Of a DNA stretch of 64,000 nt, positions 20,457-58,128 are shown one piece after another. Each line of letters begins with the position of its first letter. Within the stretch, counting starts at the first letter, position 1. The translations under genes were made by a program, and so were the position numbers. Origin of the DNA: a virus (lineage: Duplodnaviria > Caudoviricetes); the IMG/VR virus record IMGVR_UViG_3300025270_000009, positions 1 to 64,000 of that record. The stretch is one strand, 5' to 3'. A model generated the notes under the pieces. The model was given only the letters and a program-made list of their open reading frames with translations. It was not told where the DNA came from and made no database searches.

Positions 20457-20528
20457 TGCTGATACCTCTTGTTTTATTGCTGAATGTTTGTGAATGCGAG
20501 AACATACTGCTCTCTTATACTTTGTATG

Positions 20529-24857: not shown

Positions 24858-24960
24858 ATTTACCTCTTAAGAGTTTATTGCTTATCGATTAGCACTAGCT
24901 CAATGCTTATAGTATTCTATTCCAATACTGAGATACATTCAATGAAAGCATGAGGTTCAG

Positions 24961-25611
24961 ATGACAGCAAACGACTTCTACGAAAAGCTAATGGCAAAGT
25001 CCACCAGGCCATGCGAGCCCAATAACCGGGTTAACGAAAGACTTGTGGTATTTGAGAATGTCTTTACTGAGAAAGAATGTGATGAAGCACTGAAAAGTTT
25101 CGATCACTTTTCTACTGATATAGGTACCGTTGGCAAGCCTAAATCTGACGACTACTCAGAAGAAAACTACAACCATGTGCTCGACTCAACTCTTAGAAAC
25201 TGTCTTGTGACCTATGCAGATCGCTTGTTTTTCAACAGCTGGATTCATGATCGTATTGAAAAGAAGATTGTAGAGGCTAACGAGGAGGCGTGGAAATGCC
25301 AGATTACCGACTTCAGTCAGCCTATGAGGTTGATGACTTATCGAGCCGGTCATCATTTTGGCAGTTGGCATCAGGACAATGGCGTTCTCGACACAAGCTT
25401 CAGAAAACTCACCGCAATCGTTCAACTATCAAAACCAGAAGAGTATGAAGGCGGTGAGTTTCTCATAGCCGGACACCCCACCCCCGCCGAAGCTTACAAG
25501 CAAGGTTCAGTAATTGTATTCCCCTGCTACTTGATGCACCGGGTTACTCAGGTCATTTCTGGCGAGCGTAACAGCATCGTTCACAGGGCGATAGGTGAAC
25601 CGTTCAGGTAA
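24961..25611 (+). CDS. 2OG-Fe(II) oxygenase (PKHD / prolyl-hydroxylase-like)
   Basis: WHQD...RKLTAIVQLS..EEYEGGEF...HRVTQVISGERNS, giving HxD...H...RxS. Confidence 0.9.
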   Translation: MTANDFYEKLMAKSTRPCEPNNRVNERLVVFENVFTEKECDEALKSFDHFSTDIGTVGKPKSDDYSEENYNHVLDSTLRNCLVTYADRLFFNSWIHDRIEKKIVEANEEAWKCQITDFSQPMRLMTYRAGHHFGSWHQDNGVLDTSFRKLTAIVQLSKPEEYEGGEFLIAGHPTPAEAYKQGSVIVFPCYLMHRVTQVISGERNSIVHRAIGEPFR

Positions 25612-26341
25612 TTTTCGGATGTCTTTTTACGTGCGTTTGGTGGTCGTCGAACTGGTTACCAAACGCATCCACTCCTTTCGCGTAAAGGTGTCCGTTTCTG
25701 CTTGGCTTTAAAGGGTCTTCTTCCTGTCTCTTTCTTGCAAACTCCCTCTTTTGCCTACTTTCTTCTTCAACCTCTTTAGCTGGCAAAACCTCCAGGCCGC
25801 TTGATACATTAAACGAATCAATGAAGCCTCTAGGGACAGGCATAATACAACCTATTAAATCCCCCTTTTTTATTGTAACCGTGTGCCCAGGTCTCGTGCA
25901 CTTAAGGTTAAATGTGAAGTCTCTCCTTAAGTTGTCCGATTCAACAACACCGGTCATGTGGCCAACTCCGTCTATGAAATGGTTTGGCGGATTTACCGTC
26001 ATAAGATTGACACCTTTCGGCGTCTTGAAATTAAATCGGTTCTGTATAGTTACCACTCCCATTCCAAAGTGAGAAGTTACTATTTGAGGCCTCTCATTGA
26101 GTCTGGTTCGTGAGTATTTGTTGTCCATGATTATACTGACGTCTTCCGGATTGTTGCCGCCATTCCATGTAAACTTGAAATCGTAAAGGCTTCTAATTGA
26201 AAAACCATACTGGTTACCAATTAGAAGCGGTAAACAATGGTAGGCGTGCTCAGAGAACCAGTCTCTCTTTTTATCCCCCGCCATTGGCTTGACTATTTCA
26301 GCAATGTGCCGGTTGAAATTTTTATGATCGGGTATTGCAGC
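25604..26341 (-). CDS. DUF6065-like protein
   Basis: RDWF..HAYHCLPLLIGNQYG, SHFGMG, GVVESD, FTFN motifs (family recalled from memory). The start lies between about 26341 and 26392; ATG at 26359 (MKDK) is likely. Confidence 0.65.
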   Translation of the reverse strand, partial: AAIPDHKNFNRHIAEIVKPMAGDKKRDWFSEHAYHCLPLLIGNQYGFSIRSLYDFKFTWNGGNNPEDVSIIMDNKYSRTRLNERPQIVTSHFGMGVVTIQNRFNFKTPKGVNLMTVNPPNHFIDGVGHMTGVVESDNLRRDFTFNLKCTRPGHTVTIKKGDLIGCIMPVPRGFIDSFNVSSGLEVLPAKEVEEESRQKREFARKRQEEDPLKPSRNGHLYAKGVDAFGNQFDDHQTHVKRHPKIT

Positions 26342-26358
26342 TATTGTTTTATCTTTCA

Positions 26359-26889
26359 TCACAGTATGCTCTTGCTCTTCAAATCCGTCCAAAATGACGA
26401 AAGGTTGAATCTTTCTCTACCCCCAGGTGGATTTACCCCGTGTTTCCATTCCAGTGTTGACCTGAACATTAATAAAGTGCCTGGTTTCGGCTTTAAGGTT
26501 ATTCCTTTGTTTGGGAAGTATATTTCTCCGCCAGAGTAGTCGTTGTTTAGGTAAAGTATCGTCGCAAACTTTCTCCAGTGGACCGGGTGTTTGGTGCCAT
26601 CTTCGTTTTCGGCATCAGCATGAGGCGGCATTCCAAAGCCTATAGGCCACCTGGATAAAGCCAAAGTGTCAGGGTACAACCTAGAATACTCTGAGTTCTT
26701 TACGACACAGCTTCTCATTCTTAGCAACAGGTCTTTGGCCAGGCAATATCTCTCGCTGTTTTTTAAGGGCTCGCAAGCCCTGTTTTTCCAAAAACCAGTG
26801 CCACCTAAATCATTCCAATTCGTAGATCTGCACAAATCCAGAAGAGAATTTATCTCCCCTGGTTGTGCAAAGTTTTCTACCACCTTCAT
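26359..26889 (-). CDS. 2OG-Fe(II) oxygenase, prolyl 4-hydroxylase-like
   Basis: PPHAD...ILYLNNDYSGGEIYFP...KPKPG...HGV...RFNL. Confidence 0.9.
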   Translation of the reverse strand: MKVVENFAQPGEINSLLDLCRSTNWNDLGGTGFWKNRACEPLKNSERYCLAKDLLLRMRSCVVKNSEYSRLYPDTLALSRWPIGFGMPPHADAENEDGTKHPVHWRKFATILYLNNDYSGGEIYFPNKGITLKPKPGTLLMFRSTLEWKHGVNPPGGRERFNLSSFWTDLKSKSIL

Positions 26890-27116
26890 TATCTAATCAT
26901 AATGTTAGGCGGCCAGGTGGGTGGCGGCGGTATGTAAGGAGGTGGCGGTGGCGGCGTGTAGTCAGATTTGCCATGAAGGTGGCTCATTGAGACTGAGCCA
27001 GACGTTCTCTCCGCCAGGCTTCTCACGCTGCTCTGTCCTAGTGATATGGAGCCAGATTCACCTAGCTCCTGTCTCACTTGCAGCATCGTTATTGTTCCTG
27101 AAGACGGTAGTGCCAT
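26889..27116 (-). CDS. Small tail-fibre tip protein with polyproline C-terminus
   Basis: The MALPSSG.I.M..VR.ELG...SMSHLHGKS N-terminal module is typical of genes following S74 tail fibres; C-terminus YTPPPPPPYIPPPPTWPP; TAATG overlaps on both sides. Confidence 0.7.
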   Translation of the reverse strand: MALPSSGTITMLQVRQELGESGSISLGQSSVRSLAERTSGSVSMSHLHGKSDYTPPPPPPYIPPPPTWPPNIMIR

Positions 27117-30100
27117 TATGCAGCTCCTATCATTCTTTCAATCTTATCTAGTCGAATTTCCAAGCTCTCACGCTCAAACTTCTCCTCTTTCAAGGCCTCA
27201 ACCAAAAGCGCAATTATCTTTTCTTTGTGAACAGTCAAGTATTCATTGTCGAATGGTGCCGGAACCACAGCATCAGGTATAACCTCTCTCACGTTTTGAG
27301 CAATAAACCCGGTTTCGTGCCTCATTGACGGTGAAAAACCTAAATCCTCACAATTCTTTTTCCAGTCAAATGTGACACCATTAAGCTTACTCAACTTCTT
27401 CAGGGCATCAGGTATCCGCTCTATGTTTTCCTTCAGTCTTTCATCTGAAGCGTATGCTGTAACATTTCCTTTTGTATCCAAAGACTTGTTAAAGTAAAAC
27501 TTGACCCTGTCGGTATATATGTGAGCTGCACTTGTATTGGCGGGTCCGAAGTCTATATAGCCATACTGAGTAGTATGCCTTGTCCATTGACTACTTCTGG
27601 CCCAAAAATAATGGTAGCTACCACCGTCGTACAACGCTATACCCGAATTCCCGTATGTTCCTCCAGATCCATTAGTCCCATTTATATGCAGTATGCCGGC
27701 GTCTGAAGGTGTTCCACCACTACCAAATCTAGCATCAATAGAAATCCAGTCATTTCCTTCTTTATAATGAACTCGACCGTCGACAGCTATTTTATTTGTT
27801 TGGAAAGTACCATCTGTATGAAATAAGTATCGAGTATCTGGACCACCACCAACTCTTATTTGAAAAGAACCACTAGCATCATTTTCGTTGGATGCTAAAT
27901 CCCATTTAGTTGTATTACCAGATTTTAGCCTTATATATTTCCAAGCATTTACAGGGTTTTCTATTTCTAATCTAGTTCCATTAAAGGTTTTAATTCCACC
28001 AACATTTTGACTAGCCGTCGAAGATACAACACCTAGTTCGCTATATTTCGGCTTATGCCCTTCGTGGTAAACTCTTTTCCCATTGACTTGCGGGGTAGAG
28101 AAAAAGCGCACCAATTGATCGGTGTAGTAAAACTGCATAACCTTGTTTGATGGTATAGAGTCTGTTACAGACCCCATTCCTATCCACCCCTTACCATCGC
28201 CTGTGTAAGTTAGATGGAGGGCTGCACTTCCCTTTTTACCTGATTCCCCTATAGATATTCCAGCCCCCTGATCGGTTCCAGTACCACCGGATCCTGGTGA
28301 GTCTATGGTTAGCCAAGGATTGCTCTTAGAAATAGCAAGGTCACCAGAAAGAGAGCCACCGCTTAAGGGTAAGTAACTGTGACTGTGGGACGCCTGGGCT
28401 GCTCCAATTTCGCCAGGGGTGGGCTTGTGACCGGTGTGATAAATCTCTCTGGACCCAATAAAAGAGCCGTCTCTAAACCTTCTAAAGAAAAGTCGATCTT
28501 GTAAGGCTGCTACACCTATTTGAAAGCCGTTACCGCCACCACCAGAAGTGATAAATGTAGGGTAAGAGCCGATAGCGCTACCTGCATGGTTGCCAGCTGA
28601 GTAAAATCCGCTTTTTTGACCTCCTGCATCATCAGCGCTTGATAAGCTCTTTTTATAACCAAGCCCAAACTTTCTTACATCCTCATTTCTTACACTGCCT
28701 AGACCTACATCACCCGCCGTGGTTGCTCTAGCCCTTAAAGAAGAGTAAGTTCCAGATGAATTAAACACGTCACCTTGCAAGCTGAAAGTGGTGCCATTCA
28801 AACTCAAGCCAGCCCCTGATGAGTATTGCGTGTCACCAATTAAAGCTGATGACGGCAAAACTGACGTCGGTATTATGCCACTATCTATCTCGCTTGCTGT
28901 TGGGTGTCTATTCGGCAAAACTTCGTGAGTTTTGTCTACAACTCCCGAGTGTGAGGTTTCAAATGTAATGTCAAAATTTGAGCTTGTCGAGCCATAGCCA
29001 ATTACAAGGTCCTGCACTGATACATGAATGTGAGACCAGTTAGTAGTCTCTTCACCAATAAGGATGTACCTTTCCCCACCTTCAGTGACAAATCTAACCT
29101 TGACTCCTTCATAGTCTTTATCGGCACGACCAGAAACATGAGTTCTAAACCAAGACCCGCCCGATATGTAAGTGTAACCGCCTACTGTTATATCTAAAAG
29201 TCCAGAGTAAGACCATACAACCACTCTGGCGCTAAACATTACATTGTCGCTGCCGACATTTATCTTTATAAAGCCGCTTGACGTCGGGTCTATGTATCTC
29301 CCCGAAGTGTTCACCTTTTTTGTGGTGCCACCCATACGGTCAGATCTAAGAACAAAATCAGGTTTGCTAGTCACCTCCGACCAAGAAGGCCAACGAGTTG
29401 CTGTTGCCGGTTTTCCGGTTACCTCAGACCAGCTTGGAGTCCACCCTTCAGCCTTAGCTCCTATCTCAGACAGGGTAGGCCAACGAGTTGCTGTTGCCGG
29501 TTTGTTCTTAACTTGAGACCATGAAGGTGTCCAGGTGTCAGGCAGAGCGTTTACATCAGAGTATGTCAGGTTTACTGAACCAACATAACCATTAACGCTA
29601 TCAACCTTGTCTGAGCCGTCCTGTTTGAACCACTCAGAGTTTTGAGGGTTGTAAATGATGCTGTCGCCAGGGGCGTACTCGATGCCTAGTATTGTTCCCG
29701 AGTTTACGATCTTGTAAAAAACTGAGCCAACGTCAGGTGTTGGTGGAACTTGGCCGGTTGACGCATCCCATTGGCCACCCATATACATACCACCCGTTAG
29801 AGCTTGAGCGGCCTGTTTTGCCTCTTCAGAGTAACCTTTTGAGACTGAAGACCAGTGTTTACTGCTGTACTTGCCGGTTTCAACTTCAACACCGTCAGCT
29901 TCTTCCGCCCACTGCATAGCCTTGTTCATGTGAGACTGCGCCTGGCTCATAAAATATGATGCGTCTGACTTGTGTTGACCTGCCGCTTGCTCGCTTTGAA
30001 GAGCTTCTGCTGCGCTCCCTGCTGACTTTGTAGCGTGGTGTCTTGAAGAGTAAAGGCCCGTCTCTACCTCAATATCAACGTCCTTCTCCGACCATTCTTT

Positions 30101-31507
30101 AGCCTTTAATTTGTGCTGTTCTGCCAGTGACTCTGAATTTGAGGCTGCAGCTGCACTATCCGCCGATTCCCCGGCTTTCAGTGTCGCTGTCGATTCTGAG
30201 TCTGACGCCTCTGAAGCTTTTTGAGAAGCTATTTGTTCGCTGTTAGCCGCTGCCGTCTCGCTATTTTTCGCGGCATTTGCGCTGTTCTTTGAATCAACCG
30301 ACCAATGATAAGCAGAATACTCGCCAGTTAATACCTCAACGCCGTAAGCCTCTTCAGCCCATTTCTTAGCCAAGTTTTTGCTATCTGCTGCATCTAATGA
30401 GTGAGAGGCTGCATTTTGCTTGTGCTGCTCTGACAAGTTTGCATCGCTAGAAGCACTTGATGCTTTTTGGGTAGCCACCTGCTCGCTTGCTGCCGCCTTT
30501 TGCTCACTTTCAGAAGCTTTTACTGAGTAGTGGTAAGCTGAGTATTTGCCAGTTGTTACTTCTACATCAACATCTTCAGTCGCCCAACTTAGAGCCTCCA
30601 GGCGGTGTTGATTTGAAGCTGTTTCGCTTTGCTTTGCCGCTTGCTCTGATGAGGCCGAATTGGTTTCAGACTTTTTAGCGTTGGTTTCTGAAGTATTTGC
30701 AGCGTCAGCGCTCGCTTTAGACTCTACCGACCAGTGATAGGCAGAGTAAAGTCCGGTCTCTACCTGCACGTTGTGAGCTTCTTGTGCCCACTTTTGAGAC
30801 TTCTGCTCGCTTGCAAGAGACGCCGTTTCGCTATCCTTTGCTGCAACTTGGCTATCTGAAGCTGCCGCTGCTGAATTGCTTGCCGCTGTTGCTTTTGAAG
30901 AAGCGAGTGATGCACTTGCCGCAGAGTTGCCTTCGCTGTCAGCAGAATTTATTTCACTGTTTCTTGCGGCTGTTGCGGAGTTTGAGGCTTCTAACGCTTT
31001 TGCCGCCGCCCTGTCCGCCTCATCTTTTGCATTTTGGGCGTACATTGGTGCGTCACCAATCAATGCTAAATCTGCCTGAACCTGGTCAGCATTTTGCTGA
31101 ATTTGATAGGTCATCTGAGGCAAAGTTTCTATTTGAGTGGCACCTGAAGGACCGTGGACTTCGACGGTGCCCATTTCATTGAGCCAGATGTCCATTTTCG
31201 TAAACCAACCAGTAAAAGCATCGTTTTGCTTTGATACCTGGCGTGTTACTTCTCGCAAGTCTACTGTTGTTGGTAGCAATAAGCCTTTAACTCCAGCCTG
31301 ATCTGCGTATGGCCAGGGCTTTTTAAGGGTTAGCTCGTAGTCTGAACCTGAGACCTTTGTAGCTCCCACAACGGCCACTGGAAGGCCTTGCTCTGTGAAA
31401 AGAGCAATGGTTTCTGACAGAACAAAGTCCTGGGTATCTAGTGATGCTTGCACCACTGTCGCGCCGGATGTGACGGACAGTGATGTAATGTTGATAATCT
31501 CTTTCAT
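27116..31507 (-). CDS. Long tail fibre with C-terminal peptidase S74 intramolecular chaperone
   Basis: Ala/Ser coiled-coil repeats, fibre repeats, SDERLKENI autocleavage motif, GFIAQ. Confidence 0.9.
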   Translation of the reverse strand: MKEIINITSLSVTSGATVVQASLDTQDFVLSETIALFTEQGLPVAVVGATKVSGSDYELTLKKPWPYADQAGVKGLLLPTTVDLREVTRQVSKQNDAFTGWFTKMDIWLNEMGTVEVHGPSGATQIETLPQMTYQIQQNADQVQADLALIGDAPMYAQNAKDEADRAAAKALEASNSATAARNSEINSADSEGNSAASASLASSKATAASNSAAAASDSQVAAKDSETASLASEQKSQKWAQEAHNVQVETGLYSAYHWSVESKASADAANTSETNAKKSETNSASSEQAAKQSETASNQHRLEALSWATEDVDVEVTTGKYSAYHYSVKASESEQKAAASEQVATQKASSASSDANLSEQHKQNAASHSLDAADSKNLAKKWAEEAYGVEVLTGEYSAYHWSVDSKNSANAAKNSETAAANSEQIASQKASEASDSESTATLKAGESADSAAAASNSESLAEQHKLKAKEWSEKDVDIEVETGLYSSRHHATKSAGSAAEALQSEQAAGQHKSDASYFMSQAQSHMNKAMQWAEEADGVEVETGKYSSKHWSSVSKGYSEEAKQAAQALTGGMYMGGQWDASTGQVPPTPDVGSVFYKIVNSGTILGIEYAPGDSIIYNPQNSEWFKQDGSDKVDSVNGYVGSVNLTYSDVNALPDTWTPSWSQVKNKPATATRWPTLSEIGAKAEGWTPSWSEVTGKPATATRWPSWSEVTSKPDFVLRSDRMGGTTKKVNTSGRYIDPTSSGFIKINVGSDNVMFSARVVVWSYSGLLDITVGGYTYISGGSWFRTHVSGRADKDYEGVKVRFVTEGGERYILIGEETTNWSHIHVSVQDLVIGYGSTSSNFDITFETSHSGVVDKTHEVLPNRHPTASEIDSGIIPTSVLPSSALIGDTQYSSGAGLSLNGTTFSLQGDVFNSSGTYSSLRARATTAGDVGLGSVRNEDVRKFGLGYKKSLSSADDAGGQKSGFYSAGNHAGSAIGSYPTFITSGGGGNGFQIGVAALQDRLFFRRFRDGSFIGSREIYHTGHKPTPGEIGAAQASHSHSYLPLSGGSLSGDLAISKSNPWLTIDSPGSGGTGTDQGAGISIGESGKKGSAALHLTYTGDGKGWIGMGSVTDSIPSNKVMQFYYTDQLVRFFSTPQVNGKRVYHEGHKPKYSELGVVSSTASQNVGGIKTFNGTRLEIENPVNAWKYIRLKSGNTTKWDLASNENDASGSFQIRVGGGPDTRYLFHTDGTFQTNKIAVDGRVHYKEGNDWISIDARFGSGGTPSDAGILHINGTNGSGGTYGNSGIALYDGGSYHYFWARSSQWTRHTTQYGYIDFGPANTSAAHIYTDRVKFYFNKSLDTKGNVTAYASDERLKENIERIPDALKKLSKLNGVTFDWKKNCEDLGFSPSMRHETGFIAQNVREVIPDAVVPAPFDNEYLTVHKEKIIALLVEALKEEKFERESLEIRLDKIERMIGAA

Positions 31508-47721: not shown

Positions 47722-47751
47722 CTAACTTACCTCTTTATTAAAAGTGAAAGG

Positions 47752-47769
47752 TATCTCAGCGATGAGATA
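47752..47769. promoter_or_regulatory. Perfect copy of the dispersed 18-bp operator TATCTCA-N4-TGAGATA
   Basis: TATCTCA-GCGA-TGAGATA upstream of the capsid gene; about 17 near-matches at other intergenic sites (see findings). Confidence 0.75.
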
Positions 47770-58090: not shown

Positions 58091-58128
58091 GGGTTTACAC
58101 GGTATCTAAATGCTGAGATACTATTTCC

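Follow-up and report, generated by a model that had tools for sequence, protein, structure and literature searches.

Contiguous proline runs serve as the substrate in the extensin pathway of plants and algae, in which the chains of hydroxyproline-rich glycoproteins (HRGPs) meet a prolyl 4-hydroxylase (P4H)-type enzyme and then a hydroxyproline O-arabinosyltransferase (HPAT). According to Eriksson et al. (1999), as cited in a 2022 survey (PMC9301287), the chlorovirus PBCV-1 has a P4H along with proline-rich repeat proteins of its own. Together with the P3H1/CRTAP/cyclophilin B complex, these are by analogy the closest known systems to the locus described here, a gene cassette of an uncultured tailed phage (IMG/VR record IMGVR_UViG_3300025270_000009). 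The window we analysed comprises the first 64 kb of this 101,852-bp viral record, which CheckV rates as complete. In the cassette, a tail fibre gene is followed by genes for a 75-aa protein with a proline-rich end, for a P4H-like 2-oxoglutarate (2OG)/Fe(II) oxygenase and for a DUF6065 protein. Sequence comparisons lead us to lean modestly towards the view that this is a module of the late operon by which prolines in the tail of a fibre-associated protein become hydroxylated, DUF6065 acting as a seemingly obligate partner.

The four genes overlap one another in a chain on the minus strand (Table 1), as a preliminary description of this DNA had read it. The two TAATG junctions given there, at 27116 and 26889, are real and join the fibre gene to the 75-aa gene and the latter to the oxygenase gene; a third start/stop overlap, TGATG, couples the oxygenase to DUF6065. 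The count of 12 prolines in the 24 C-terminal residues of the 75-aa protein (DYTPPPPPPYIPPPPTWPPNIMIR) was right as well. The longest proline runs of this tail are 6 and 4, and it is the sole proline-rich segment within a real gene in the whole genome. In a comparison with the relative L003 (91% identical, from another sample), codons 1-57 of the 75-aa open reading frame (ORF) show 12 synonymous and three conservative changes, the last 12 codons four synonymous and no non-synonymous ones, and a single indel stays in frame. Because of this substitution pattern and the in-frame indel we regard the ORF as a real gene, and at the codon level its tail end is under purifying selection.

Second receptor-binding proteins, whose genes follow that of the first fibre or spike, have a short conserved N-terminal anchor. 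The 75-aa protein resembles them in that it starts with a module typical of post-fibre proteins, but it has the tail alone and no receptor-binding domain. Residues 1-51 match phrog_26817 (1.5e-12). In cultured phages of Vibrio, Providencia, Pseudomonas and Ralstonia, tblastn finds the module at the N-termini of 170-320 aa proteins whose genes directly follow a fibre gene. A profile search retrieved 6,136 protein clusters with the module, in each case at residues 1-54. Judged by these matches, the module is a generic adaptor at the start of small phage proteins whose genes come right behind the fibre gene, and the earlier recognition of a fibre-tip attachment-like module is confirmed in the sense that these 51-54 N-terminal residues are typical of proteins encoded just 3' of fibre genes. 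Five of the 150 best module clusters have a proline run. One of these five proteins, P0138, consists of the module, some 125 residues and then ...PPPPPPPWPPNQHIP. Since P0138 has module, middle part and the same tail, the window protein would be a version without the middle domain; the comparison thus bears out the statement that a receptor-binding-like domain is missing at this place. Module-plus-polyproline proteins that were found independently of DUF6065 (P0138, P0179 and P0273) are on contigs too short to judge their context.

Tails of the same type (proline run, W-[PS]-P, short end) are also present in L003, L004, L005 and P0138, and in L004 the tail is carried by a protein without the canonical module. 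In five tails, the residue directly behind the proline run is a tryptophan. L005, the locus with an 85-aa module-plus-tail protein, encodes a second proline-tailed protein (2-1129; 21 prolines, then W-GGGGGPGQIEP), and this one lies upstream of the fibre gene. The preliminary description had further proposed a leader/core arrangement as in ribosomally synthesized and post-translationally modified peptides (RiPPs). This analogy fails because the module is no pathway-specific leader: it is generic, 145 of the 150 best of its clusters are devoid of a proline run, and the proline tails of L004 and L089 occur without it. Pfam families of leader proteases or recognition elements were found neither in the cassette nor in its syntenic copy, where small unknown genes nearby could still encode one.

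For the first oxygenase, profile and fold matches support the P4H-like identity proposed earlier and, as far as sequence and model comparisons go, membership in the peptidyl-prolyl hydroxylase clade (P4H/P3H/PHD). H90-x-D92, H150 and R160, corresponding to the HxD...H iron triad and the basic 2OG-binding residue, are invariant in 25 relatives. The family profile, compared with PDB entries, matches P3H1 best (2.2e-13), then the B. anthracis P4H, with a match along almost the entire enzyme (2.6e-10), and the PBCV-1 P4H (1.4e-6), with PiuC, PHD2 and lysyl hydroxylases further down and TET/JBP at just 0.013. An AlphaFold2 model (predicted local distance difference test, pLDDT, 94.3) was searched with Foldseek; the top matches listed are peptidyl-prolyl hydroxylases with template modelling (TM) scores of 0.62-0.78, except for a putative uncharacterised oxygenase (3dkq) at rank 31. 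The first of them is P3H1 within the P3H1/CRTAP/cyclophilin B complex.

The likeness to the PBCV-1 enzyme (vCPH, PDB 5c5t), the third structural match of the window oxygenase (1.3e-9, TM 0.73), lies in a viral single-domain P4H alongside viral proline-rich proteins, so far as the survey cites them. PBCV-1 differs in its eukaryotic algal host and in having no DUF6065 partner, whereas in the window a candidate substrate gene lies directly 5' of the enzyme gene of predicted activity in a phage fibre operon. The extensin/HRGP pathway is comparable with respect to its P4H-type enzyme (Chlamydomonas Cr-P4H-1, PDB 2jig, a structural match at 6.7e-8), to HPAT, as some Planctomycetota proteins combine DUF6065 with an HPAT-like domain, and to tyrosine-containing motifs between proline runs. 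In contrast to plants and algae, the window cassette has no glycosyltransferase and there is no secretory pathway, and the connection to HPAT is based on fusions in distant bacteria that are barely over the Pfam threshold. The P3H1/CRTAP/cyclophilin B complex (PDB 8k0e and related entries) provides the best profile and the best fold match (8.1e-10), and its combination of a hydroxylase, a non-catalytic partner and a cyclophilin is paralleled by P4H-DUF6065 and by DUF6065-cyclophilin fusions; on the other hand, DUF6065 is unrelated to CRTAP and the window substrate is not Gly-X-Y collagen. Iyer, Abhiman, de Souza and Aravind (2010; PMC2938197) predicted that bacterial dioxygenases hydroxylate co-encoded collagen-like and tail-collar proteins. 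Theirs is likewise a comparative-genomics prediction in which dioxygenases act on structural proteins encoded next to them; in contrast to our case, a term search of the text found neither 'proline-rich' nor 'tail fiber', and cyanophage arrays were read there as secondary metabolism. Our literature search retrieved nothing that describes hydroxyproline in phage virions.

Gene neighbourhoods also argue for a functional link. DUF6065 loci were gathered with an alignment query (a single-protein query returned none) and dereplicated at 85% identity to 49 DUF6065 clusters, of which 7-kb flanks were examined. On the same strand and within 7 kb of DUF6065, a P4H is present in 78 of 86 loci, directly upstream in 39; after dereplication the two are linked in 45 of 49 loci, some of them as fusions. 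Immediately 5' of P4H, 10 of 42 dereplicated loci have a gene for seven or more consecutive prolines, compared with 7 of 595 among the other genes (odds ratio 26, p 7e-9). When fibre-adjacent module proteins are taken generally, 3 of 150 have such a run, and relative to these the enrichment beside P4H remains clear (p 1.7e-5). Co-occurrence of proline-rich proteins with such oxygenases across genomes, suggested in the preliminary description as a check, is therefore strongly positive. The set of genes turns up again in numerous phages and in some bacteria.

Genes 5' of P4H often encode 7-40 consecutive prolines, and a longer upstream protein is typically composed of the module, polyproline, an 80-aa Cys-bounded domain, polyproline and another domain. 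The nearest DUF6065 relatives (L003, L004, L005 and L089) all sit behind a gene for a protein with a C-terminal proline tail; in L089, the nearest among contigs of bacteria or metagenome-assembled genomes (MAGs; 59% identity), the order is fibre, 219-aa proline-tail protein, P4H, DUF6065. The pairing is also seen next to a bacterial surface protein: on the bacterial chromosome L093, a gene for a 1815-aa SdrD/Cna-type adhesin with a 32-proline run precedes one for a DUF6065-P4H fusion.

In some loci, glycosyltransferases follow P4H-DUF6065. An example is L006 (543-8290; ENA contig ERZ19533941), where P4H, DUF6065, two PF11397 genes (Gnt1-type) and more glycosyltransferase-like genes come after that of a 1299-aa Thr/Ser/Pro-rich protein which has a P8 run close to its end. 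Members of PF11397 add N-acetylglucosamine to hydroxyproline of Skp1, and L006 may represent a full hydroxylation-plus-glycosylation form of the cassette. Genes for hydroxyproline-directed glycosyltransferases were found only in distant relatives, and none in the window cassette or its syntenic copy. Two MAGs assigned to Steroidobacteraceae/Proteobacteria (L111:8348-8953 and L115:8195-8863) have P4H-DUF6065 pairs and, some 2 kb further downstream, genes for proteins that begin with a hydrophobic stretch resembling a signal peptide and end in 19-28 prolines plus poly-threonine.

Table 1. Features of the cassette and its surroundings in the window (positions count from the first letter of the 64-kb stretch)
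Feature	Position	Strand	Remarks
Tail fibre	27116-31507	-	1463 aa; ORF; Pfam PF13884 (Peptidase_S74), PHROG tail-fibre families
75-aa ORF	26889-27116	-	Open reading frame between fibre and P4H-like oxygenase
N-terminal adaptor module, residues 1-51 of the 75-aa protein	26964-27116	-	phrog_26817, tblastn, profile search
Proline-rich C-terminal tail DYTPPPPPPYIPPPPTWPPNIMIR, residues 52-75 of the 75-aa protein	26892-26963	-	Candidate hydroxylation substrate
P4H-like 2OG-Fe(II) oxygenase	26359-26889	-	176 aa, catalytic domain alone; 2OG-FeII_Oxy_3, PF13640 1.1e-10
DUF6065 protein	25604-26359	-	251 aa counted from the ATG overlapping the oxygenase stop; PF19541 2.4e-41
Second 2OG-Fe(II) oxygenase, PKHD/PiuC-like	24961-25611	+	216 aa; phrog_61 1.4e-28
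Inverted repeat AGTATT-N7-AATACT plus word CTGAGATAC	24911-24936	no strand	Divergent intergenic region

Several observations weigh against a module that hydroxylates the tail of a fibre-associated protein. About 70% of the dereplicated P4H-DUF6065 cassettes have no adjacent polyproline gene, and many of these sit in sugar-nucleotide, methyltransferase or RuvB islands. In the reverse direction, a scan of viral contigs for (CCN)12 gave 80 loci, 76 of them with a readable tract of at least 10 prolines; a P4H-family match was found in two of these 76 and DUF6065 in none, although many of the tracts belong to contigs of giant viruses or to short frames that are probably not genes. In L003, the P4H gene has an internal deletion of about 440 bp and has lost its ATG, and the peptide, DUF6065 (28 synonymous and 12 non-synonymous differences from the window) and the second oxygenase (17 and 6) are kept. 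This deletion, with the rest of the cassette under purifying selection, indicates that P4H is dispensable in L003. A need for the P4H-like enzyme is accordingly not supported, as the closest relative lost most of the enzyme yet keeps the peptide; the second oxygenase may compensate for the loss there. The gene after P0138, on a 943-nt contig, encodes a membrane protein. Two structural matches of the oxygenase, 5v7y and 4iw3, have entry titles that describe bacterial P4Hs modifying or bound to EF-Tu, which makes a host target conceivable. Moreover, both the hydroxylation and the role of adhesin or decoration are predictions, and the fold of DUF6065, discussed below, is that of nucleotide enzymes.

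Some of these points would suit a cargo directed at the host, that is, a moron or 'AMG' (auxiliary metabolic gene) cassette inserted at the variable end of the fibre module. Its target would be a protein of the host, for instance EF-Tu or one from the ribosome, and the 75-aa ORF would be what is left of a second receptor-binding gene after loss of its domain. Such cargo would agree with the many cassettes in metabolic islands, with the EF-Tu titles, with the loss of the middle domain relative to P0138 and with the P4H deletion in L003. It would also agree with the 2022 survey, according to which few 'auxiliary' genes are as common in aquatic viromes as those for prolyl 4-hydroxylase (P4HA), the viral use of which 'remains cryptic' (PMC9301287). 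We nevertheless consider it rather unlikely, given the 26-fold enrichment of polyproline directly 5' of P4H, the purifying selection on the tail end, the translational coupling inside a late structural operon, the same pairing beside the bacterial surface adhesin and the fusions of DUF6065 to HPAT-like and cyclophilin domains.

The gene that had been called DUF6065-like encodes a full member of the family, with 142.2 bits against a cut-off of 26.6 and a match that extends from position 14 to 234 of the 236 in the profile. The homologues collected, which share about 50% identity among themselves, number more than 940 and come mostly from metagenomic and viral contigs. Among 50,697 GenBank phage records, tblastn with DUF6065 gave no match; a search with the P4H gave just weak cyanophage matches and megablast with the locus none. 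It follows that no cultured phage can be used as a model. A literature search returned no paper that mentions DUF6065.

In its predicted model (pLDDT just 78.6), DUF6065 adopts a dUTPase-like fold. Foldseek relates it to such folds at an E-value of 1e-3, and in a fold comparison 14 dUTPase or dUTPase-fold entries reached Z 8.1-10.2 over 103-131 aligned residues. Chains of dCTP deaminases and their relatives came next with Z 5.3-6.9, and no unrelated fold exceeded Z 3.4. This raises the possibility that a dUTPase-fold enzyme and the oxygenases together modify a nucleotide, a nucleotide sugar or another metabolite, and that the proline tail is coincidental. Genes for NTP_transferase, GDP-mannose dehydratase and epimerase near some cassettes, and the interpretation of cyanophage dioxygenase arrays as secondary metabolism (PMC2938197), would be in line with this proposal. 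However, the dUTPase Pfam model PF00692 has no match anywhere in the genome, DUF6065 included, and hhalign of the DUF6065 profile with E. coli Dut yielded a non-significant probability of 0.3%. The oxygenase is, in addition, far closer to protein hydroxylases than to nucleic-acid oxygenases, polyproline is enriched 5' of P4H, and the identifiable fusion partners of DUF6065 are mostly protein-directed, apart from one VIT1 fusion. Altogether, nucleotide or small-molecule chemistry strikes us as very improbable.

DUF6065 and P4H are fused in both domain orders (L009, L093, P0278 and P0281). In four Planctomycetota proteins DUF6065 is joined to an HPAT-like domain, with scores of 23.7-30.8 bits around a cut-off of 23.9, so that one of them (23.7) falls below it; further fusions involve a cyclophilin (2e-27) and TPR repeats. 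These partners suggest that the chemistry of DUF6065 points to peptide-bound proline rather than to nucleotide metabolism. As single observations, P0279 (455 aa, ENA; 27 member sequences) carries DUF6065 fused to a VIT1 domain (PF01988) of the iron/manganese transporter family, an unexplained link to iron, and L135 (5926-10410, a Planktothrix MAG) encodes two DUF6065 domains plus a cyclophilin in one protein, preceded by a 1293-aa TPR protein with a proline-rich N-terminus and followed by a PMT_2 (protein O-mannosyltransferase-like) gene.

Proline runs stall ribosomes, and it could be argued that DUF6065 and its partners aid translation, isomerisation or folding of polyproline in the manner of a chaperone or peptidyl-prolyl isomerase, without any covalent mark. 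The fusions to cyclophilin and TPR repeats would fit, as would the top structural match of the oxygenase, P3H1 within its complex with CRTAP and cyclophilin B. We hold this to be quite improbable, since the catalytic set of the oxygenase is intact, the runs in the window tail comprise just 6 and 4 prolines and most viral polyproline genes are without such a helper nearby.

Returning to hydroxylation of the proline tail, the cassette might work as follows. The 75-aa protein would be translated by coupling from the fibre gene, and its N-terminal adaptor module would probably dock it onto the fibre. The 24-residue proline-rich tail would be the substrate, the prolines of which are predicted, from enzyme family and neighbourhood, to be hydroxylated by the P4H-like oxygenase together with DUF6065. 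As the presumed partner of P4H, DUF6065 would either grip the proline-rich chain as a subunit or, as an enzyme, modify it a second time. The PKHD-type second oxygenase might contribute further hydroxylation or serve as a backup to the first; this is the weakest step of the scheme. In the relatives, the cassette would serve longer proteins in which runs of 10-40 prolines lie between small Cys-bounded domains, and the window would represent a minimal version. In the virion, hydroxyproline could stiffen a polyproline-II rod, provide a glycosylation site or bind to the host.

A bolder version of this scheme, which we put forward tentatively and regard as doubtful, is that DUF6065 constitutes a new class of dUTPase-fold enzymes that act on proline-rich chains with or after P4H, for example by nucleotide-dependent transfer onto hydroxyproline, and that phages and bacteria of aquatic habitats widely use the P4H-DUF6065 unit to tailor the polyproline rods of fibres and adhesins. 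In that case, the abundant unexplained viral 'P4HA' genes would gain a substrate. If hydroxylation in the window is true, tailed phages would chemically tailor their own fibre-associated proteins as plants do extensins and animals collagen, and DUF6065, including its fusions to hydroxylase, cyclophilin and HPAT-like domains, would obtain a functional context. The candidate substrate is here a defined 24-residue tail in a CheckV-complete genome, and a single nucleotide separates its coding sequence from that of the enzyme.

The remaining genes of the locus are of less direct relevance. The fibre protein matches many PHROG tail-fibre families and carries at its C-terminus a Peptidase_S74 intramolecular-chaperone domain (residues 1354-1414, 2.3e-17; PF13884). 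The second oxygenase gene converges from the plus strand, as had been described, and its 3' end overlaps that of DUF6065 by 8 nt. The best PDB match of its product is the PKHD-type hydroxylase 3dkq (2.3e-8), PiuC structures being at 0.03-0.04, and none of its Pfam matches reaches the respective cut-off. The only loci in which close homologues were found, L003, L004 and L005, are those with W-P-P-type tails and too few to test a link. Distant relatives (25-44% identity) sit after glycine-rich and collagen-like fibre genes. Polyproline ORFs seen near these distant relatives were discarded as an artefact, being antisense readings of the glycine-rich fibre genes. In L286 (166-5393) as well as L298, L328 and L332 (IMG/VR), phrog_61-type oxygenases lie just downstream of proteins with 33-39% glycine; in L286, the oxygenase also follows a collagen-like (Gly-Pro-Thr)n protein.

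Upstream of the second oxygenase, an operator had been proposed at 24918. The inverted repeat, which spans 24911-24929, and the recurrent word adjoining it are real: CTGAGATAC occurs three times in the window (24928-24936, 47751-47759 and 58113-58121) compared with 0.33 expected, and at least two copies (24928 and 58113) are within longer imperfect palindromes. The word thus looks like a regulatory site common to several places in this phage. Control of the oxygenase, by contrast, could not be upheld, since the element overlaps a minus-strand sigma70-like promoter site (24942-24914) that faces the leftward 115-aa gene. Half-sites resembling the CTGAGATAC palindromes are present near 20525 and 55815. 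Finally, the fibre gene contains, at 29400-29650 of the window (residues ~620-700), three tandem copies of a W-(T)-PSWSEV-x-x-KPATATRWP-type motif.

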